Positions 39,434 to 52,415 of a DNA stretch of 64,000 nt are shown here, in pieces. The notes beneath the pieces are model-generated. The model was given only the letters and a program-made list of their open reading frames with translations. It was not told where the DNA came from and did no database searches. The stretch spans positions 3,973,045 to 4,037,044 of the forward strand of contig OZ252051.1 in NCBI GenBank assembly GCA_965247985.1, read 5' to 3'. Origin of the DNA: an uncultured Candidatus Binatia bacterium (GTDB lineage Bacteria; Desulfobacterota; Binatia; Bin18). Position numbers and translations under genes: made by a program. Position 1 is the stretch's first letter; every line of letters begins with the position of its first letter.

Positions 39434-40999
39434 TCACACCGTCTCATATTCTCCCTCAAGCAGTCTGCGACGCAATAATTTGCCCGTCGGACTCTTGGGT
39501 AAGCCGGGCACAAACTCATAGCGCCGCGGACGTTTGAAGTCGGCAAAGTCCTCGGCCTGACGACAGAAGGCGTCCAGGTCTTCCGCACGCAGCGCAACAA
39601 GACTCCCGTCAGCCCCCCGTTTGGGAATAACAAAGGCAGTGACCACCTGTCCCCAGCGCTGGTCCGGTAGACCGACGACACAAGCTTCATCAACCCCAGG
39701 GTGACGAGAGACAACCTCCTCAACCTCAAGCGGATAAATATTCTCCCCACCGCTAATGACCATATCATCCACCCGACCAACGGTGAAAATATCTCCGTCT
39801 TCGTCCTCGTACACGAGATCGCCGCTAAAATACCAGCCGCCACGCAGCGCTTTGGCATCCGCCTCGGGCCGCCGCCAATAGCCCTGAAACGCTTCGGGCG
39901 AGGAGAGACTGACAATCAGCTCGCCGGTTTCCCCCCGAGACAGAACGGCGTCCGGGTCACCCTGTCTTTCGGAATCAGCCCGCACGATGCGGATCCGGCT
40001 AAAGATACCGGCTCGGCCGGCACAGGTCGGTTTCTCCAATATACGATCACAGATCGTGAATGTATAAATTTCGGTACTCCCGAGATGATTGACAAAAACC
40101 CGAGGCTGGAAAATATCCGCAACCTGTTGCGTGAGTGTCCCGGACATGGGCGCTCCGGCGTAACCCAGCTTGGTGACGCTCGCCATTGCCGTCCGCGTGC
40201 AATCCGGCACATTGACCAGATCGTGATACAGCGTCGGAACGAGATAGAGCGACGTGACCTGCTCGTTCGCAATCAGATTCACGGCTGTCTCCGGGCTCCA
40301 GTCCGGCAGGCAGATCAAGCAACCGTTCAGTAAGGCCATGACAAGCATCGAGCGGACACCCATCGTATGGTAGAGCGGCATGACTCCGAGGGTGCGATCT
40401 CGAATGCTGTTCTGGCTTTGCAGGCTATGGGCGAGGGCCGCACTATACTCGGCCCGATGCGTGCGCGGCACTCCTTTGGGCCGACCGGTTGTGCCGGACG
40501 TATACAGCATAATGCTGCTGTCCGCTTCGGAAACCTCAGCTGGCGATGCCCTGCCGGTCCCTTCGTCCTCTAACAGAGCGGAAAAAGAAAGACAGTCTGC
40601 CGGGGGATTGTCTCCAACGTAGATCCAGGTATGAACGGTTGACAGTGAGGGCCGCGCCGCCTGGACCGCCGCGTGACTTGCCTGTTCAAATATGACCGCA
40701 ACCGCTTCCGCGTCCTGGACACAAAATGCGATATCCCCGGCTGACCAGCGCCAGTTAAGCGGCGTCGCAATGGCGCCGATCCGCTGACACGCCCAGTACG
40801 CGGTGGCATGTTCGAGCCGGTTTTTCAGCAAAAACACAACATGGTCACCGCGGGTAATACCACGCCGGTGTAAGGCCTGCGCCACCCGGCTGATACGAGT
40901 CTGCCAGGCGCGGTAGGTCAGACGCCGGTCTCCATCAATAATAGCCTCTGCCTCGGGATACCGAGCGGCGGCCATATCGATGACGCTGGCGATATTCAT
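39434..40999 (-). CDS. AMP-dependent acyl-CoA synthetase/ligase
   Basis: Start MNIASVID. Its ATG overlaps the upstream TGA (ATGA). Motifs MLYTSGTTGRPKGV, YHTMG, GELIV, SGDL.Y.DEDG and ISGGENIYP.EVE. Confidence 0.9.
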   Translation of the reverse strand: MNIASVIDMAAARYPEAEAIIDGDRRLTYRAWQTRISRVAQALHRRGITRGDHVVFLLKNRLEHATAYWACQRIGAIATPLNWRWSAGDIAFCVQDAEAVAVIFEQASHAAVQAARPSLSTVHTWIYVGDNPPADCLSFSALLEDEGTGRASPAEVSEADSSIMLYTSGTTGRPKGVPRTHRAEYSAALAHSLQSQNSIRDRTLGVMPLYHTMGVRSMLVMALLNGCLICLPDWSPETAVNLIANEQVTSLYLVPTLYHDLVNVPDCTRTAMASVTKLGYAGAPMSGTLTQQVADIFQPRVFVNHLGSTEIYTFTICDRILEKPTCAGRAGIFSRIRIVRADSERQGDPDAVLSRGETGELIVSLSSPEAFQGYWRRPEADAKALRGGWYFSGDLVYEDEDGDIFTVGRVDDMVISGGENIYPLEVEEVVSRHPGVDEACVVGLPDQRWGQVVTAFVIPKRGADGSLVALRAEDLDAFCRQAEDFADFKRPRRYEFVPGLPKSPTGKLLRRRLLEGEYETV

Positions 41000-43437
41000 G
41001 CAGGGCTTCCTTTCATACTCGCCTCCAACTGCTGCCACAGCTTGTTTGGGGTCAGGGGCAACTCGGTAATTTCAATACCAAGATGGCGGACGGCATCGGC
41101 CACCGCATTGGCAATGGCAATCGGCGCAGTCTGGGCGGTGCTTTCCCCGATGCCCTTGGCTCCGGTTAAGGACTGGGGAGTCGGCAGCACAATATGGTCC
41201 ATCACCACGTTGTCCGGCATTTCGTTCAGCGTCGGACACAGATAGTCCATCAACGTTCCGGTCAGAAAATCACCCGTCTCGGTGTAACGCAGCTCCTCGT
41301 ACAGAGCACCGGCAAGGCCGTGTAAGAGACCGCCGGCGAACTGTCCTCGGGCTATCTGTGGGTGCAGGATATTCCCGGCGTCGTGCACAGTAATGTAGTC
41401 GGTCACGCGGATATCGAGCGTCTCTGTATCGATCTCAACAACGGCAACATCCGCAGTGAAAGCATAGACCGCAGAAGAGTTCACCTGATCGTACTCGTTC
41501 GGATAGTCGAGATCACGGGCAATAAACGTTCCTTCAACGTTACAGGCGGTCTCCAACTTCGGCGGCAGCGTTCCGGTTGACCAGTGCAGACGCGCCGCGA
41601 CGTCTTTCAGGCTCAGGCCGAGCTGGGTGTTATCGAGCGCAACAATGCGGCCTTCCCGGACGCTGAGTCGATGCGCTTCAACATCCAGGAAGTAGGCAGC
41701 CGCCTGGATAAGATTGTCTTGCAACTGCTTGGTAGCAGCGACAATTGAACTTGCCCCGACCGCGCCAAAACGACTGGAATAGCTGCCTGAAGAAACCGAC
41801 CACGGTCTGGAGCCGGTATCCATCCCGGCGATGACAGTCACGTCTGCTGGCGCAATGCCCAAGGCTTGGGCGACAATAAAAGCGGCAGTCGTTTCCTGTC
41901 CCTGTCCGTGGGCCGCTGTCTCCAACTCAACCGTGACGCCGCCCGTCGCGTCCAAGTAGATACGTGTCGTCTGAGCCGAGCCGACTCGGACTAGGTTTGG
42001 GCGTCGCTGCGCGGCTTTCTTACTCACGTCTATATAGCCCATATTCGAGCCCGAGGGATCTATTGCAACGGCGATGCCAACCCCGCGCCACACCCTGGCA
42101 TCACTCGGACCTGAAGTACCCCCTGAAGTGCCGGTGGATTGCCGTAGCTTCCAGTAATCACTCAGTTCCAGCGCGCGCTGCGTGGCACGGGGATAATCCC
42201 CGGAGTCGTACAGTCCGCCCGTCACCGTGCGGTAGGGGATATCGTGTGGCTGGATGAGGTTTTGCAACCTGACCTCGGCTGGGTCTTTACCAATCTTCAG
42301 GGCGATTTCGTCAATCGCGCGCTCAATCGGGAAATAGTGCTGTTGGCAGGCATAGCCACGATTCGGGCCGCTGGGACAGACATTCGTCATGACCGCCAGG
42401 GCGTTGACCTGAAGATGCTCGATCTTGTAGGCGTTCATGAAATTGCCGACTGGACGGAACAAACAGCCAGGTTCCGGCGCACGAATATAGGCCCCCACAT
42501 TGTCCATGAGGCGCATTTTGAGACCGAGCAGTTGGCCATCATTGCGTGCCGCGACCTCAAGTTCCGTCACCCGGTCCGTTCCGGTCGAGCTTGCGCTGAG
42601 CGACTCCAGGCGGTCTTCGATCCACTTGACCGGACGGCCGGCTTTCCGAGAAGCAAGCGCCATTAAGGCCATATAGGGATACAGGGCGATCTTATTCCCG
42701 AATGAACCACCGACATCCGGTGGCGTTACTACGCGCAGCTTGCTGAGGGGAACACGGAGCGCCCCAGCCAAAACTGCCAGCATGCTATACGGCCCGTGAA
42801 AGTTGGCCCAAAAACTGACCTGTGACGAGGACGGATTCCAACTGGCGATAATCCCATAGGTTTCGAGTGGAAAGGACTGATAGCGGGGAAAAACATAGCG
42901 CTGCGAGAACACCATATCCGCAGTGCTGAAGACCGCTTCCACATCGCCGTAGGTGAGCTGACGATCGATGGCGACATTGGTTGCAAGCTCCTCATGCAGG
43001 ATGGGGGCCGAGGGCTGCATGGCGGCCTCAACATCAACCACGGCAGGCAGTGGCTCATACTCCACTTCGATTTTATCCCGGGCGTCTTCAGCAATATATC
43101 GGTCGGCGGCAACCACCACCGCGACCGGCTCGCCAACATAGCGTACTTTTTCGATAGCGCAGGAATAGTATCGTCCCGGACGTTCGGCAGCCACCGCAAA
43201 CGGCCGACTCCACCCTTGGATTTCACGCCCGGTCAGCACAGTGATGACGCCCGGAAGCGCCAGCGCAGCGCTGGGATCAATGTCTATAATACGCGCATGC
43301 GCATACGGGCTTCTCACCACCGCGGCATGGGCGAGATTGGGCAGCGGGTTGAGGTCGGCAATATACTGGGCCTGAAGATCAAAGAGCCGCCGGCCTTCGG
43401 TTGAGGGCGGCGGCGCGGTGGTTGGATGCTGAGACAT
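40996..43437 (-). CDS. Molybdopterin-dependent hydroxylase large subunit (xanthine dehydrogenase / aldehyde oxidase family)
   Basis: 813 aa. Contains Ald_Xan_dh_C and C2 regions, and the C-terminal catalytic Glu context GAKGIGESTAQTAPIAIANAV. The active-site loop reads GPNRGYACQQ. It is neither the VAYRCSFR loop (form I CODH) nor AYRGAGR. Confidence 0.9.
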   Translation of the reverse strand: MSQHPTTAPPPSTEGRRLFDLQAQYIADLNPLPNLAHAAVVRSPYAHARIIDIDPSAALALPGVITVLTGREIQGWSRPFAVAAERPGRYYSCAIEKVRYVGEPVAVVVAADRYIAEDARDKIEVEYEPLPAVVDVEAAMQPSAPILHEELATNVAIDRQLTYGDVEAVFSTADMVFSQRYVFPRYQSFPLETYGIIASWNPSSSQVSFWANFHGPYSMLAVLAGALRVPLSKLRVVTPPDVGGSFGNKIALYPYMALMALASRKAGRPVKWIEDRLESLSASSTGTDRVTELEVAARNDGQLLGLKMRLMDNVGAYIRAPEPGCLFRPVGNFMNAYKIEHLQVNALAVMTNVCPSGPNRGYACQQHYFPIERAIDEIALKIGKDPAEVRLQNLIQPHDIPYRTVTGGLYDSGDYPRATQRALELSDYWKLRQSTGTSGGTSGPSDARVWRGVGIAVAIDPSGSNMGYIDVSKKAAQRRPNLVRVGSAQTTRIYLDATGGVTVELETAAHGQGQETTAAFIVAQALGIAPADVTVIAGMDTGSRPWSVSSGSYSSRFGAVGASSIVAATKQLQDNLIQAAAYFLDVEAHRLSVREGRIVALDNTQLGLSLKDVAARLHWSTGTLPPKLETACNVEGTFIARDLDYPNEYDQVNSSAVYAFTADVAVVEIDTETLDIRVTDYITVHDAGNILHPQIARGQFAGGLLHGLAGALYEELRYTETGDFLTGTLMDYLCPTLNEMPDNVVMDHIVLPTPQSLTGAKGIGESTAQTAPIAIANAVADAVRHLGIEITELPLTPNKLWQQLEASMKGSPA

Positions 43438-43485
43438 AATGCTAAGAAAGACGCTGTTGGACTATCACGCAGGGGTTGAATCCGT

Positions 43486-43968
43486 TCACTTTCTTTGATC
43501 CCGCAAGCGCTTGGCTGCCTCCACAATACTCACATAGCCGGTGCAGCGACATATATGCCCCCCCAGCGTCTCTTGAATATCCCGGTCCGTAATCGGCTCT
43601 GGCGCGGTCTCCAGGAGATGACACAGACTAAGGGCGAAACCGGCAGTGCAAAAGCCGCACTGCATAGCAAAGTGCTCAACAAAAGCCTGCCCGACCGTTT
43701 TTCCGAGGTCGGTTTGCATGATCCCTTCAAGCGTGGTGATCGCATGTCCTGCCGCTTGCGGGGCCAAACGCAAACATGAACGAACGGGCAATCCATCAAC
43801 CAGCACCGTACAGGCACCGCACACCCCCTGCTCACACCCCAGATGTACGCTGGTGCAGCCGGCCTCTTCGCGCAGAAAGTCGGCCAGCGTTTTGCGAACG
43901 TCAACCAGCGTTTCAACTGGCGTTCCGTTGACGGCGGTCGTGACAATGATGCGGCGTTGAGGCTGCAC
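43486..43968 (-). CDS. (2Fe-2S)-binding small subunit
   Basis: GTG start 5 nt after AGGAGA, overlapping the upstream TAG by 1 nt. Motifs CEQGVCGACTV and CGFCTAG...NICRCTGY-type (HICRCTGY). Confidence 0.9.
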   Translation of the reverse strand: MQPQRRIIVTTAVNGTPVETLVDVRKTLADFLREEAGCTSVHLGCEQGVCGACTVLVDGLPVRSCLRLAPQAAGHAITTLEGIMQTDLGKTVGQAFVEHFAMQCGFCTAGFALSLCHLLETAPEPITDRDIQETLGGHICRCTGYVSIVEAAKRLRDQRK

Positions 43969-44864
43969 TATGCTCTCCTGACCGTGTTCTCTCGGCCTTC
44001 CTTCCCTTTCCACATAGCAACAGCATCCAGGTAGGCGCGCTTGACCATCACCCGAGCGAGATGCTTCCGATACTCGGCAGAGGCATGCAGATCAGTGTGA
44101 CAATCGAGTCCTGCGACAGCCGACGCCGCAACCGCCTCGGCCTGACCGTCAGACAATACCTGCTGTGTCAGCACGGCTTCAGCCTGGGGGACCCGCAGAG
44201 GGCGATCCTCCACGCCAAACAGGACGACACGTCCATGCGCACAACGGTCCTCACCCATCTCGGCCAGCACGATCGCCCCGGCCAGGGCAAAATCCCCCGC
44301 CCGTCGGGTGTACTCCCGCACCCCCCACACCACGTTCTTGCGGATGGGGATACGGACTTCGGTCAGCAGTTCGTCAGGCCGGATATCCGCGCTCAGGGGA
44401 CCCTGAAAAAAATCAACCGCCTGAATACAGCGTGCTCCGGACGGTCCGACAACGAGCAGCTCTGCGTTTAAGGCGCAAATTGCCGCCGGCAGTTCCGCGG
44501 CCGGGTCGGCATGGGCCAGACTCCCCCCAATTGTTCCCGCATACCGAATAGGCGGATGGCCGATCAGGCGCGTGACCGCAGCCAACACGGGCACGGTGCG
44601 CTGAATACGAGCGTCCCGTTCAAGCCTGTATTGCCGGGTGAGAGCGCCAATATGCAGGCGCTCAGCCTCTTGACGGATGTAGCTCAACTCGTCCAAGCCG
44701 TTGATGTCCACAACCACGCCGGGAGTTGTCAGTCGCATATTGAGGAGCGGCATAAGACTCTGGCCCCCAGCGAGAATCTTCGCCTCGTCGCCATACTGAC
44801 CAAGGACGGCCAGCGTCTGTTCGATTGATTTCGGAGCAATATACTCAAAGGGGGCAGGCTTCAT
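43968..44864 (-). CDS. FAD-binding subunit (CoxM/XdhB-like)
   Basis: Start MKPAPFEYIAPKS after GAGGGAGAA. Motifs ILAGGQSLMPLLNMR and AGTIGGSLAHADPAAE. There is no Cys-rich 4Fe-4S insertion. Confidence 0.9.
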   Translation of the reverse strand: MKPAPFEYIAPKSIEQTLAVLGQYGDEAKILAGGQSLMPLLNMRLTTPGVVVDINGLDELSYIRQEAERLHIGALTRQYRLERDARIQRTVPVLAAVTRLIGHPPIRYAGTIGGSLAHADPAAELPAAICALNAELLVVGPSGARCIQAVDFFQGPLSADIRPDELLTEVRIPIRKNVVWGVREYTRRAGDFALAGAIVLAEMGEDRCAHGRVVLFGVEDRPLRVPQAEAVLTQQVLSDGQAEAVAASAVAGLDCHTDLHASAEYRKHLARVMVKRAYLDAVAMWKGKEGRENTVRRA

Positions 44865-45021
44865 TTCTCCCTCTTCGACCTCGCGCCGGACTATACTATG
44901 GATGGAATAGCCAGTCCAGTTTTCCAGCCCCCTGCGTTTCTCCAGTTGACGCACCCCCGGACAATCCATATTGATGGGCCGAAGAGTCTAGGATCACTTT
45001 TTTTCCGAAAGGAGTATGTGT

Positions 45022-45696
45022 ATGAGCGGTCAAGAAGCAGGGCTCAACAACGAGCTCAAGCAACAAATCGTAGCCTTCCAAAAGGAAATGCTGCCAAAGA
45101 TTCCACCGGAGATTCGTGAGGTACTGGTCCGCACGACCGAAGATCAAGTCAAATCCGGCATCACGGCCAAGGCCCTGAAAGTCGGAGACAAAGCCCCTGA
45201 CTTCACCCTGCCCAACGTGCGTGGAGAGGCGGTGACGCTTTCAAACCTCCTGGCCAAAGGACCGGCCGTCATTGCCTTTTATCGAGGCGCGTGGTGACCG
45301 TACTGCAACCTGCAGTTGCAGGCTTACCAAAAACGCTTGGCTGAGATGCAGGCGCAAGGCGCGTCCTTGATCGCCATCTCTCCCCAGACCCCGGATAATT
45401 CGTTGACTGTTGCAGAAAAGAATGAGCTTCAATTTGAGGTTCTCAGCGACGCCGGCAACGCCGTCGCCCGACAGTTCGGGCTGGCGTTTCGATTTGTTGA
45501 TGAGTTGCAGGAGACCTTTGAAAAAATGGGTATTCAACTGCCCACATACAATGGCGATGAGGCTTGGGAACTACCGATACCCGGCACCTATGTCATTGAC
45601 CAGGACGGCACCATTACGCTGGCCTATGTGGATGCAAACTATACCACCCGGCTTGAGCCAGGTGATATTCTTGACAGTCTGCAAGGGCTGAATTAA
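45022..45696 (+). CDS. Predicted selenoprotein: PRX_like2 / AhpC-TSA family thiol-disulfide oxidoreductase with Sec (UGA 45295-45297) in a W-U-P-Y-C motif
   Basis: Track ORFs 45016-45297 and 45316-45696 share one frame, separated only by TGA plus 6 codons. The joined sequence reads ...PAVIAFYRGAW-U-PYCNLQLQAYQKRL...LIAISPQ. The family normally has FYRG.WCPYCN there. A hairpin follows the UGA. Confidence 0.7.
45300..45327 (+). promoter_or_regulatory. Candidate bacterial SECIS stem-loop
   Basis: ctgcaac-ctgca-gttgcag (45303-45321), extendable by gta/tac. The loop lies 13-17 nt after the UGA and contains G. Confidence 0.5.
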
Positions 45697-49328: not shown

Positions 49329-49796
49329 TTACGGGCGAGACGGCTTGTCTGTTTGCGGCCTCTTCTTAATCAGATAGGCGTGCATACCCTCAAGCACGAC
49401 CTCGTCGCGTTGATTGATAATACGGGTTGTGAGGCGCAGGACGCCGACAGCGGTCTTGGGAATCAGTTCGCTCACTTCCAGCTCGGGTTTCACGGTGTCG
49501 CCGATCAGGACCGGTTTGAGAAACCGGGAAGACTGCTCAAGAAAGGCCACCATCGACTCTTCGACCAACGGCGACAGTTCGGACGCACCCAGACAGCCCA
49601 GGGCGGTCACCAACAGCCCGTGGGTGACACGTTTGCCAAAGCGAGTGGTCTTGGCGTATTCGTCATCGTAGTGAATCGAGTGGTTGTCGCCCGTCATGCC
49701 GGAGAAAAAAAGAAAATGGGCATCGGTCAGGGTTTTGGCCGGACTCCGATAGACCTCACCAAGCTCGAAATCTTCAAAGTATTTGGTAGTTGGCAT
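49329..49796 (-). CDS. MaoC-like (R)-specific enoyl-CoA hydratase / hotdog-fold dehydratase
   Basis: FSGMTGDNHSIHYDDEYAKTTRFGKRVTHGLL. Its start abuts the RidA stop (49796/49797). Confidence 0.85.
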   Translation of the reverse strand: MPTTKYFEDFELGEVYRSPAKTLTDAHFLFFSGMTGDNHSIHYDDEYAKTTRFGKRVTHGLLVTALGCLGASELSPLVEESMVAFLEQSSRFLKPVLIGDTVKPELEVSELIPKTAVGVLRLTTRIINQRDEVVLEGMHAYLIKKRPQTDKPSRP

Positions 49797-50189
49797 CTAT
49801 TTCTCATCCAGCACGGCAATCGCATCAATTTCTATGAGCGCTTCCGGACGCAGCAGTTCCTTGACCACAATCCCGGTTGCCGCGGGGAAACCGTTTTTGA
49901 AAAACTCGCGGCGGACCTCGGCTGTGCCGCGATAGCCTTCCTTGGTGGTGATATAGTCCACGGTCTTGACGATATCGTCAAAGCTCGCTCCGGCTGCGTC
50001 CAGGATCTTGCCGATCTTCTGAAAGATCTCGCGCGTTTGGACAACAATATTACCCTCGCCCACGACTTCGCCTTTTGCGTTGAACGCGGTTAGGCCGGAA
50101 ATAAACAACAGATTCCCCTTGCGCACCGCCGGCGAGAACGTATAGCGCTGGTCAAAGCCCCAGGGATCAACGATTTCAAGTTTCGGCAT
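49797..50189 (-). CDS. RidA/YjgF/L-PSP family protein
   Basis: Start MPKLEIV 9 nt after GAGGAGA. Motifs LLFISGLTA, QTREIFQKIGKILDAAGASFDDIVK and IEIDAIAV. Confidence 0.85.
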   Translation of the reverse strand: MPKLEIVDPWGFDQRYTFSPAVRKGNLLFISGLTAFNAKGEVVGEGNIVVQTREIFQKIGKILDAAGASFDDIVKTVDYITTKEGYRGTAEVRREFFKNGFPAATGIVVKELLRPEALIEIDAIAVLDEK

Positions 50190-50230
50190 GGATTGGTTTC
50201 TCCTCTCGTCCACTCTCGCTTATCTTCAAT

Positions 50231-50782
50231 TCAACCGTGCGCGACACGCTGAAGAGGCGGTCCGTCCAATTCAAGCTGGACCGCAATTTCGGCCAGCGCC
50301 TCTTCGGCGCGGCCACGAAAATCCTCAGGCTTTTCCCCGGCCTTGATGTGCGGAATGACCACGATGGGAATATCCGGCATGGCCATGGCTTTGGCTTGAT
50401 CCTGGGCCGCAACGAGAAAGGTATCAAAAGTCACGGCAACGGCTCGCACCCCCCGCTTCCACAGTTTTGCTGAGTCGAGCATACAGCCCGACGTACACGA
50501 CCCTCACGCGCACAGGCCGACAACGGCCTGCTGCGACGCTGCGGCGACCTCGTTAATCAACTGCTCGGGCGAAGGACGGGTAAACATCGGCTTGCGCCAG
50601 ATCGACACCTTACTCACGGCCGGCTTCGCCTCCAGGAGTTCCTTGAGTCGTTCAAAAAACATCCCGGCGATCTCATTGCCAAAGCCATTGTTCACCAATC
50701 CGATGACACGGCCTGCAGCGTTCCTATCGATTTTCTTTTCGGCAAATTGTCGTCGGACTCCGACGGGGCTGAGTACCCGCAT
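50231..50782 (-). CDS. Predicted selenoprotein of the UGSC family (Sec at UGA 50504-50506)
   Basis: Track ORFs 50504-50845 and 50231-50482 are in one frame. The joined sequence reads ...QQAVVGLCA-U-GSCTSGCMLDSAKLW...IPIVVIPH. Start MRVLSPVG (50782) lies 6 nt after GAGGT and 8 nt after the upstream stop. Confidence 0.7.
50474..50501 (-). promoter_or_regulatory. Candidate SECIS stem-loop downstream of the UGSC UGA
   Basis: On the minus strand: GUCGUGUACGUCGGGCUGUAUGCUCGAC. The outer stem is GUCG/CGAC, continued by GUA/UGC-type pairs, with a G-rich apical region. It starts 3 nt after the UGA. Folded by eye only. Confidence 0.35.
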
Positions 50783-50790
50783 ATGGCACC

Positions 50791-51843
50791 TCACTGACTG
50801 TGTTGAATTTCCTTGGTCACGGCAAATCCACCCAGTCCACCCCAACCTGGACAGATCGCCGCGAAATACGTTTCTCCTCCAGCCACCACAATGTGAATGT
50901 TACGGGGCCGCTCGGTGATGGGCACCCGGTAGTCGTCATTATCCTTCTCCACCCAACTCGGCCAAAACTGGTCTGATATCCCAAGGGCGTCCACTGCTCG
51001 AATGTCCCCCAGCCGGGCCCGGGCGTGCTCCCACAGGTAGACCCGAATCTCAGGCTTGGACCAGCCTTCACGCTGAAACTGGCGCGCCTGCCAGGGATTC
51101 AGCACAACCAGGGTTTCACCCATGGCTTGGACATTATTACTGCCCAAGCCGCTGAGCGAGCTAACCAGTGAGGCCAGCATCTGTGCGACCGTGCCGTAGC
51201 ATAACACCGAGTGAGGGGCCTCACAGCTAAACACGGTCACGGCATTTTTACCGGCTTCGATCCCACGCTCAACGTGCAGCGGTTCCCACGGATTCGACTC
51301 TTCCTTTTCTGCAATACAAAAGCTCCACTTGCCGGGGTGGGCCTGGGTGGACTTATCTACCTCACCGGGGATATTGCCGCCCAGATTCCAGAGGAGCAGA
51401 CGGATGGCACGGCCAACAGTCCCGTTGGCCCGGAAGCCGTTACCAAACACACCGTCGCTGGCATTGAACTTGAGTTCTGTAGCAATCGGACCGTTGACGA
51501 TGGTCAGCGGCACACAACTATGGGTGGTGGTCTGCACGCCGTTGAGATTGTGTTCCGGCTCCAGCATGGCCTCGACCGCAGCGATAATAATCGGAAAGTA
51601 TTCAGGCCGACAGCCGGCCATGACACTGTTGACCGCCAGTTTTTCAATAGTGGCAATGCCTTGAGCCGGCGGAATCTCGCCCAACTCTTCTTGCGGGTCA
51701 CGCCCGGAGGCTTTGATCGTTGCCTCGACCAGTTCTTCAGTCGGCGGCACGATAGCCAAGCCATCGGTCCAGCCGCGCTCAAAGAACAACTCGACCGCGG
51801 CGTGGTAGTCTTCAACGTCAATCGGTTCGGATGTGAACTGCAT
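50791..51843 (-). CDS. Conserved-looking hypothetical protein (350 aa), first gene of the UGSC operon
   Basis: Globular, with no TM segment or signal peptide. Clean ORF with Cys-containing segments (MAGCRPEYFP, THSCVPL, FSCEAPHSVLCYG, FAAICPGWGG). I recognise no family. Confidence 0.6.
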   Translation of the reverse strand: MQFTSEPIDVEDYHAAVELFFERGWTDGLAIVPPTEELVEATIKASGRDPQEELGEIPPAQGIATIEKLAVNSVMAGCRPEYFPIIIAAVEAMLEPEHNLNGVQTTTHSCVPLTIVNGPIATELKFNASDGVFGNGFRANGTVGRAIRLLLWNLGGNIPGEVDKSTQAHPGKWSFCIAEKEESNPWEPLHVERGIEAGKNAVTVFSCEAPHSVLCYGTVAQMLASLVSSLSGLGSNNVQAMGETLVVLNPWQARQFQREGWSKPEIRVYLWEHARARLGDIRAVDALGISDQFWPSWVEKDNDDYRVPITERPRNIHIVVAGGETYFAAICPGWGGLGGFAVTKEIQHSQ

Positions 51844-51939: not shown

Positions 51940-52275
51940 TCACGCCGCCAGCATTTTCTCGTTGCAGGTATAGATCGTGACATCGGGAATGCGGGCGAAA
52001 TCCGTATCTGTGGTCGCAATGATGGAGACCTCATGGTCCTGCATAATAGACCAATGATAGGCGTCCCGAGGCAGTAAGAGGTGACGGTCCACTGTTTTGA
52101 GGGCCGTCTCATATGAACCTGCTTCTGTTTCGATAAAGGAGATATGCGGTAACTGCTCAAGCCTTTTTGTAAACGCTCGCAACTTCCGCAATATTGGTTT
52201 GAAACGGTCAGGCTCTTCTCGATACACTTCCCAAAAAGTTTTCGGAGCATGAAGCTGTTCGGTTTCGAGCTTCAA
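51940..52275 (-). CDS. PIN-domain-like protein (possible VapC toxin, atypical N-terminus)
   Basis: C-terminal pattern RDAYHWSIMQDHEVSIIATTDTDFARIPDV resembles PIN. The usual N-terminal D(T/S)N motif is absent. TTG start overlaps the upstream stop. Confidence 0.45.
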   Translation of the reverse strand: MKLETEQLHAPKTFWEVYREEPDRFKPILRKLRAFTKRLEQLPHISFIETEAGSYETALKTVDRHLLLPRDAYHWSIMQDHEVSIIATTDTDFARIPDVTIYTCNEKMLAA

Positions 52276-52394
52276 TAAGATGTACCACGTTCTCGTACAA
52301 AGCGGTCCAACAGGAAAAGCAGAGTCTGCTGGTTCTCCTGGGCGAGTCGCTTCAGTGTGCGATGGAGCGCGTCGTCAACGTAGACAGATTTCAT
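52272..52394 (-). CDS. 40-aa ribbon-helix-helix-like antitoxin candidate (not in ORF track)
   Basis: MKSVYVDDALHRTLKRLAQENQQTLLFLLDRFVRERGTSY. Its TGA overlaps the TTG of the PIN-like gene. Confidence 0.4.
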   Translation of the reverse strand: MKSVYVDDALHRTLKRLAQENQQTLLFLLDRFVRERGTSY

Positions 52395-52415
52395 GTCATT
52401 TTCTCTTCGCAGCAT

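Follow-up and report, generated by a model that had tools for sequence, protein, structure and literature searches.

Does the in-frame TGA at positions 50504-50506 mark the end of a gene, the ruin of one or a codon for selenocysteine (Sec)? The question arises on the minus strand of a 64,000-nucleotide stretch of contig OZ252051.1 (GenBank assembly GCA_965247985.1) from an uncultured Candidatus Binatia bacterium, hereafter the window, where two open reading frames (ORFs) meet between 50231 and 50782. An interpretation made from the letters without database searches, the sequence-only reading, had joined them across the TGA into a single UGSC-family selenoprotein and held the gene to be intact, Sec-decoded and no pseudogene. 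Our analysis makes it very probable that positions 50231-50782 (minus strand) are indeed one intact UGSC selenoprotein gene that is decoded with Sec. The family was reportedly first recognised in the Sargasso Sea analysis of Zhang, Fomenko and Gladyshev in 2005. As the sequence-only reading had stated, it is a described selenoprotein family without known function, and it ranks among the major predicted families in marine metagenomes and, to a still greater degree, in non-marine aquatic ones (PMC2398784, PMC13188914). The Global Ocean Sampling (GOS) data held 255 Sec and 21 Cys sequences of UGSC, which was the most often used selenoprotein family in the non-marine samples (PMC2398784); a 2026 review still lists it as uncharacterised (PMC13188914).

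Read from ATG 50782 to the TGA at 50231-50233, the minus strand is a single frame whose sole interruption is the TGA at 50504-50506, and it translates as 92 amino acids, TGA and a further 90 amino acids. The ORFs at 50504-50845 and 50231-50482 share this frame and are the two halves of the gene, set apart by the TGA and seven codons (GSCTSGC, 50483-50503) that run up to ATG 50482. Translation gives ...QQAVVGLCA*GSCTSGCMLDSAKLWK... across the junction, in agreement with the proposed VVGLCA-U-GSCTSGCMLD. The proposed start also holds: ATG 50782 lies 8 nt past the stop codon (TGA 50791-50793) of a 350-amino-acid gene and is preceded by the Shine-Dalgarno motif GAGGT, as had been claimed, with a spacer of 5 nt rather than 6, the sole discrepancy with the sequence-only reading. 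Both the start MRVLSPVG and its Shine-Dalgarno motif are kept in about 40 UGSC orthologues. An alternative start at TTG 50845 was rejected, as it would make UGSC overlap the upstream gene and every orthologue begins MRVLSPVG. Ahead of ATG 50482 we found no Shine-Dalgarno motif, so the downstream half, as expected, has none of its own. At its other end the protein is less constant. In several Binatia genomes (loci L009, L015, L016, L017, L020 and L032) the UGSC frame is 14-18 codons longer than in the window, with about 104-108 residues after Sec as against 90, and it overlaps the start of the next gene, of the Rid family; the C-terminus is therefore variable among Binatia genomes.

The assignment to the UGSC family was examined by scoring the joined 183-residue protein with U replaced by C. 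The Pfam profile PF24696 (UGSC) matched at 108 bits (E = 7.4e-31; gathering cut-off 25), with residues 3-170 of 183 aligned to profile positions 2-170 of 172, a full-length match that bears out the proposed family membership. The hallmark motif is present as A-U-GSCTSGC in the window and as A-C-GSCTSGC or a near variant in 13 of 13 full-length homologues.

The UGA itself is shared by every close relative that we found. When the joined protein was used as query in a word-indexed search, only three close relatives came back, all of them C-terminal fragments beginning at the internal Met, and their contigs carry the identical split, TGA and neighbour genes. A HMMER scan of the N-terminal 92 residues against 1.84 billion protein cluster representatives (E up to 1e-3) retrieved 21 proteins, down to about 31% identity. 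Twenty of these (89-121 amino acids) end exactly at the column preceding the UGA; the remaining one, of 76 amino acids, diverges partway and is a shorter fragment that does not reach the junction. Five contigs encoding such N-terminal homologues were inspected, and in 5/5 the TGA is followed in frame by GSCT.... Scanning 185,579 species-representative genomes for GSCTSGCM, a procedure biased to the exact motif and blind to divergent Cys forms, yielded 36 confirmed loci, 30 from Candidatus Binatia-like genomes (70-94% identity) and six from Dehalococcoidia/Chloroflexi and Armatimonadota; the codon before the motif is TGA in 36/36. The identity to the 30 Binatia-like loci also identifies the organism of the window as one of this group. 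Altogether, 44 related genes from Candidatus Binatia, Chloroflexota (Dehalococcoidia), Armatimonadota and metagenomes were compared, and all 44 have TGA at the identical codon. Because these 44 genes and the 20 homologues that reach the junction share the position, its conservation is far beyond chance.

Homologues that carry Cys supply the other side of the pairing. A profile search with ten joined sequences identified full-length homologues of 191-208 amino acids, and in 13/13 aligned proteins the UGA column is occupied by Cys, in the form A/D-C-G-S-C-T-S-G-C. The in-frame UGA is thus aligned with the Cys of homologues, it is kept in orthologues, and both flanks are under selection. The sequence-only reading had predicted Cys or Sec in this column, and that is what the homologues and orthologues show. 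It had also named as fatal to itself homologues without Cys or Sec at this position, and a sense codon or frameshift revealed by resequencing; neither refutes it, the same TGA being found throughout the relatives.

A stem-loop had been drawn immediately 3' of the UGA, and folding this region was proposed as a search for a Sec insertion sequence (SECIS). The stem-loop exists as a 7-bp hairpin with a 5-nt loop at 50474-50492 that begins 11 nt after the UGA (Table 1). For criteria we took the consensus model of the bacterial SECIS (bSECIS) quoted in PMC13188914, which describes an apical loop of 3-9 nt, an upper stem of 4-16 bp, a G in the first two loop positions that is usually followed by G or U, a UGA-to-loop distance of 16-37 nt and a minimum free energy of -7.5 kcal/mol or lower. 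The hairpin agrees with this model throughout: its loop is 5 nt, its stem 7 bp, its loop begins U-G-U (G at position 2, U at position 3), the loop lies 18 nt from the UGA and the hairpin alone has a free energy of -10.4 kcal/mol. Across 23 distinct sequences, 93.2% of the cells in the stem alignment are paired, compared with 24-38% when the 3' partners are slid, and the loop is always N-G-U-N-U. Both sides of the pair have changed in three of the seven stem pairs (G-C to A-U, G·U to U-A and C-G to G-C).

The clearest trace of the hairpin is at the level of codons. Among 18 diverse genes, 38 codon columns encode a conserved amino acid with degenerate codons. Five of these lie in the hairpin, and their codons are identical in 18/18 genes (T97 ACG, S98 TCG, G99 GGC, C100 TGT and D103 GAC). 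The other 33 columns have codon entropies of 0.79-2.47 bits, so that zero entropy occurs in the five hairpin codons only; the spacer codons right after the UGA (G94, S95 and C96) vary among the same genes. The Cys-form gene of Planotetraspora is a natural control: it encodes T-S-G-C as ACC TCT GGA TGC, without the hairpin. The conserved peptide U-GSCTSGCM(L/H)D carries the SECIS in its codons. All sequence tests that could be run (TGA in 44/44, Cys in 13/13 and the hairpin) support the proposal of an intact, Sec-decoded gene. The Cys-form gene of Advenella still has a hairpin, but a weaker one (-7.4 kcal/mol) whose stem has A-U at its base; it may be what is left of a former SECIS.

We listed the in-frame TGA junctions of the window systematically, and one other case proved credible. 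Here an in-frame TGA divides a peroxiredoxin-like (Prx-like) gene of the AhpC/TSA family, which is also split in the public gene calls seen; the two ORFs, once joined, give a protein that matches PF00578 at 116.6 bits. A hairpin, CCUGC-AGUU-GCAGG, again begins 11 nt after the UGA, with G-U at loop positions 2-3, and the TGA and hairpin are kept together in 16 Binatia loci (15 genomes). Elsewhere here TGA is an ordinary stop codon, as at the end of the gene upstream of UGSC. Since two unrelated genes carry the same recoding signature, the comparison points to a working SelB system in the lineage. Our literature search on selenium use in Binatota or Candidatus Binatia found no relevant mention, so that Sec use in Binatota seems to be indicated here for the first time. 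Within about 5-10 kb of the two selenoprotein genes, the window also holds the large and FAD subunits of a molybdenum hydroxylase (xanthine dehydrogenase family; 40996-44969, minus strand), beside an AMP-dependent ligase. Some enzymes of the xanthine dehydrogenase family use a labile selenium cofactor.

Several results weigh against the interpretation of the gene or of its function. The NCBIfam equivalog model NF041046, 'UGSC family (seleno)protein', scored 91.8 bits, below its cut-off of 125. Sec forms of the Binatia/Chloroflexota/Armatimonadota clade all score 83-98 bits and the Cys forms of Nocardia, Planotetraspora and Advenella 126-158 bits, and we consider the gene, on its profile matches, to be a member of the UGSC superfamily in a clade outside the NCBI naming rule; because the rule misses this clade, its public records are two unnamed fragments. 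The double changes in the hairpin come from L006 and L007, the most divergent pair of sequences; most of its signal is conservation. The surrounding 67-nt region folds no better than shuffled versions (z = -0.65), and Rfam gave no hit that reached its gathering threshold anywhere in the window and, near the UGA site, none of any meaning even with E allowed up to 10; for both reasons the SECIS case is to be read as resting on comparative data, the codon level being strongest, and not on thermodynamics. As for function, the structure model discussed below is that of a Cys homologue with 30% identity and not of the window protein, the best structural matches of the upstream gene product are weak, and the redox role and the partnership that we propose are argued from motif, model and synteny. 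Finally, searches of the 64-kb window and of related loci totalling about 0.5 Mb found no selA, selB, selD or tRNA-Sec. ARAGORN predicted no tRNA gene of any kind in the window and no tRNA-Sec in 37 related loci, no sel gene is among the window's larger ORFs, and a tblastn search with an E. coli SelD sequence as the query had no match in the DNA of the window and related loci; these searches covered a fraction of the genome and are silent on the remainder. At L037 6187-6278 (minus strand), partly over the 3' end of the UGSC gene, ARAGORN reported a 'tRNA-???' with the four-base anticodon cggg, probably a false positive.

That no Sec machinery was found in the DNA searched favours a reading in which an amino acid other than Sec is placed at the UGA, for example through near-cognate Trp or Cys read-through or through Cys insertion by the Sec pathway, the hairpin being a generic stimulator of read-through. 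The Sec pathway can insert Cys at UGA under selenium limitation, which also speaks for this alternative. We nevertheless judge it very unlikely: the hairpin fits a SelB-type bSECIS in its loop G-U and 11-nt spacing, as does that of the unrelated Prx-like gene, and TGA is otherwise a stop codon in this genome. UGSC is, moreover, an established Sec/Cys family (PMC2398784).

We give even less credence to a split gene, in which the UGA terminates translation and two products, of 92 amino acids (from ATG 50782) and 83 amino acids (from ATG 50482), assemble non-covalently. Public gene callers do predict these two products in every relative, and ATG 50482 is conserved. Yet this ATG, besides lacking a Shine-Dalgarno motif, is Met101 of the conserved motif and lies inside the hairpin loop; each full-length homologue is one continuous chain that has Cys in the UGA column, and the GSCTSGC codons, the most conserved of the protein, would go untranslated. 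A pseudogene or a sequencing or assembly error, with a nonsense mutation in a former Cys gene, has in its favour a frameshift further downstream in a low-coverage related contig (L002), but the recurrence of the same TGA across 44 independent assemblies that span three or more phyla, purifying selection on both halves and codon-level conservation confined to the hairpin effectively refute it, leaving a negligible chance.

If the gene is one Sec-decoded unit, what might the protein do? By sequence it has no match in the Protein Data Bank (PDB), and we modelled its closest full-length Cys homologue, P0025 (30% identical, 96% coverage), with AlphaFold2 and 23 homologues. The model (predicted local distance difference test score (pLDDT) 84.3, predicted template modelling score (pTM) 0.81) is built of five beta-alpha units. 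The residue that corresponds to U93, a Cys, lies between strand 3 and helix 3, and the second motif Cys is in the first helical turn. The end of a strand and the first turn of the following helix form the classical position of a redox-active CxxC. The PDB fold matches of the model are flavodoxin-like or Rossmann-like (WrbA, PurE, RpiB, PTS IIB and the NagZ C-domain; template modelling (TM) score ≤0.47), with no thioredoxin fold among them. A thioredoxin-like fold was suggested for UGSC in the 2008 GOS paper (PMC2398784). We rejected it on this 30%-identical homologue model, in which the five flavodoxin- or Rossmann-like units do not follow the mixed-sheet beta-alpha-beta-alpha-beta-beta-alpha order of that fold; the model suggests that UGSC is a single flavodoxin-like alpha/beta domain, not thioredoxin-like. 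A C-x2-C-x3-C metal site was also considered as the core motif and rejected, C100 being Ser or Thr in L006, L007 and P0053. Because C100 is variable, while U93 and C96 are invariant, the functional core, judged by conservation, is U-x-x-C.

The gene directly upstream is the most constant companion of UGSC. Its 350-amino-acid product has no Pfam or NCBIfam match and no PDB match by sequence, and Pfam searches at E up to 1 on 43 of its homologues returned noise only. Those homologues number more than 6369 at E up to 1e-5, are 'hypothetical' wherever named and in many cases are 55-60% identical across phyla. The gene adjoins UGSC in 40 of 46 related loci, whichever of the two comes first and whether UGSC is in its Sec or its Cys form. 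It stands next to UGSC in all 30 Binatia loci and adjoins eight further Sec-form loci (L004, L006, L008 and L039-L043), upstream or downstream. It also lies directly upstream of the Cys-form UGSC of Advenella (41% identity, E = 1e-87) and Planotetraspora (42%, E = 4e-98), loci that also have a divergent LysR regulator. Among the six other loci without a partner match, four end too near UGSC to tell, and L045 and L046 were assessed by BLASTP instead. The pair thus spans Binatota, Chloroflexota, Armatimonadota, Actinomycetota and Pseudomonadota, and since it is kept in either order across these five phyla, gene order provides strong evidence that UGSC and this partner act as a functional unit. 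In the window the two genes are probably translationally coupled. In the partner, Cys78 is invariant in 43 aligned homologues and Cys176 nearly so, both being kept in the Advenella and Planotetraspora proteins. The GOS paper described UGSC fused to an 'Unknown_1' domain in reads (PMC2398784); the partner may be this domain.

Three of the loci with this arrangement (L013, L018 and L019; CAZBUD010000011.1, CAZXFE010000203.1 and CAYWPF010000095.1) are titled 'uncultured Enterobacteriaceae bacterium'. They hold the Binatia-type operon of partner, UGSC, Rid and MaoC at 80-90% protein identity to the window, and for this reason the label looks wrong.

Downstream of UGSC, the same strand carries a Rid/YjgF gene, kept in Binatia loci only, then a MaoC-like hydratase gene and, last in the cluster, an amidohydrolase-family gene that is kept in most Binatia loci (Table 1). 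The neighbours in Advenella are a family III CoA-transferase, TctC and a pyridine-nucleotide disulfide oxidoreductase. These neighbours in Binatia and Advenella are a hint, and no more, of a role in the catabolism of organic acids or amides. On the upstream side of the operon and close to it, at 51940-52415 (minus strand), a small PIN-like ORF (111 amino acids) and a 47-amino-acid ORF look like a VapBC-type toxin-antitoxin pair; the homologue of the former in L002 carries a Pfam PIN domain, and the pair is present in some Binatia relatives and missing from others.

The comparisons establish that the gene is intact, to which family it belongs, the pairing of Sec with Cys, the SECIS signature and the constancy of the neighbourhood; from these, actual Sec insertion, the redox cycle and the partnership are inferred. 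Taken together, we propose that a ribosome starting at ATG 50782 would reach the UGA, where the hairpin 11 nt further on would direct Sec insertion over termination by acting as a bacterial SECIS bound by SelB·GTP·Sec-tRNASec; translation would then run on to the true stop at 50231. In the resulting protein, Sec93 and Cys96, predicted to lie at the end of strand 3 and in the first turn of the next helix, could cycle between a selenol/thiol pair and a selenenylsulfide, as suggested by the motif, its position and the precedent of the family. UGSC might then be the redox-active small subunit, or the dedicated reductant, of a two-protein enzyme formed with the 350-amino-acid protein, which in Binatia would be embedded in a small catabolic operon with the Rid protein, the MaoC hydratase and the amidohydrolase. 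Our most tentative step is that UGSC and its partner could constitute a widespread, uncharacterised two-protein enzyme with U-x-x-C as its catalytic or electron-delivering site, possibly a reductase or lyase of a new type that acts on small organic acids or amides.

Table 1. Coordinates of the features discussed. Positions are those of the window, except in the last row, where they are those of the named loci.
Feature	Position	Strand	Remarks
UGSC-family selenoprotein gene, complete	50231..50782	-	183 codons including Sec; stop TGA 50231-50233; one frame; PF24696
In-frame UGA, putatively read as Sec	50504..50506	-	U93 of the U-G-S-C motif; TGA in 44/44 related genes; Cys in 13/13 full-length homologues
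Shine-Dalgarno GAGGT of the UGSC gene	50788..50792	-	overlaps stop of upstream gene; GGAGG-like equivalent before ATG in orthologues
SECIS hairpin GUCGGGC-UGUAU-GCUCGAC	50474..50492	-	5' arm 50486-50492; loop UGUAU 50481-50485; 3' arm 50474-50480
Partner gene, 350-amino-acid uncharacterised family	50791..51843	-	directly upstream of UGSC; AlphaFold2 pLDDT 88.6
Rid/YjgF (L-PSP) family gene	49797..50213	-	likely start ATG 50189; PF01042 87 bits
MaoC-like hydratase/dehydratase gene	49329..49796	-	PF01575 65.7 bits; abuts Rid stop codon; kept in Binatia loci
Amidohydrolase-family gene, 561 amino acids	47628..49313	-	PF07969 90 bits; last of same-strand cluster
Prx-like (AhpC/TSA) second selenoprotein gene	45016..45696	+	UGA 45295-45297, FYRGAW-U-PYC; hairpin 45309-45322
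Cys-form UGSC genes	L045 7001-7597; L046 7001-7597		Planotetraspora and Advenella

The Sec call of the sequence-only reading is right, for a selenoprotein family already known since 2005. What is new is the annotation gap at the level of a clade, the UGSC gene being split in every public gene call seen; the clean codon-level demonstration of the SECIS, as read from the comparison of genes; and the presence of the 350-amino-acid partner next to UGSC in every lineage examined by gene order. Once the UGSC and Prx-like genes are annotated correctly, the proteome of the widespread, uncultured lineage Candidatus Binatia changes. The locus also offers a textbook SECIS inside a conserved peptide motif, with codon invariance only in the hairpin and a Cys-form gene as the natural control. 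The constant, uncharacterised neighbour is a more interesting point than the Sec call itself, as it gives a concrete handle on the function of UGSC, among the most abundant predicted selenoprotein families in aquatic metagenomes.

How does the system compare with known ones? The AlphaFold2 model of the partner (pLDDT 88.6, pTM 0.90) has its best PDB fold matches in class I fumarate hydratase and the Toblerone-fold cyclic amide hydrolases, with TM scores of at most 0.31. Foldseek matched the partner to 7xky_A with E = 4e-5 and a probability of 0.99, and two-subunit class I fumarate hydratase, with a larger subunit and a small subunit of about 190 amino acids, is reminiscent of the partner and UGSC. 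The partner differs from these enzymes in that the TM score is 0.31, the root-mean-square deviation is 15 Å and no PDB chain resembles it in sequence; these matches are insufficient to give it a fold or a chemistry.

With the Prx-like and thioredoxin-like UxxC selenoproteins ('Prx-like 1' of the GOS study), UGSC shares a U-x-x-C at the N-terminus of a helix and the SECIS spacing of the Prx-like gene in the window. It differs from them in having no AhpC/TSA or thioredoxin match and five predicted parallel beta-alpha units. The SECIS of E. coli fdhF, for its part, follows an 11-nt rule after the UGA and makes contacts through a G/U in its loop. Both hairpins lie in the coding region, with a SelB-type minihelix 11 nt after the UGA and G-U in the apical loop. 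Their sequences are unrelated, however, and the 7-bp UGSC stem has no evident bulged U, its place being taken by a G·U pair or, in the CAC (His) variants, by a mismatch.

The closest comparison is with the UGSC family as described in 2005 and 2008. The clade studied here stands apart from it in falling below the NF041046 naming cut-off. It shares with that family the full-length Pfam match, the U-G-S-C motif, the Sec/Cys pairing and a single domain of about 180-200 amino acids; and just as Sec forms far outnumber Cys forms in the GOS data, all the near relatives here are Sec forms.

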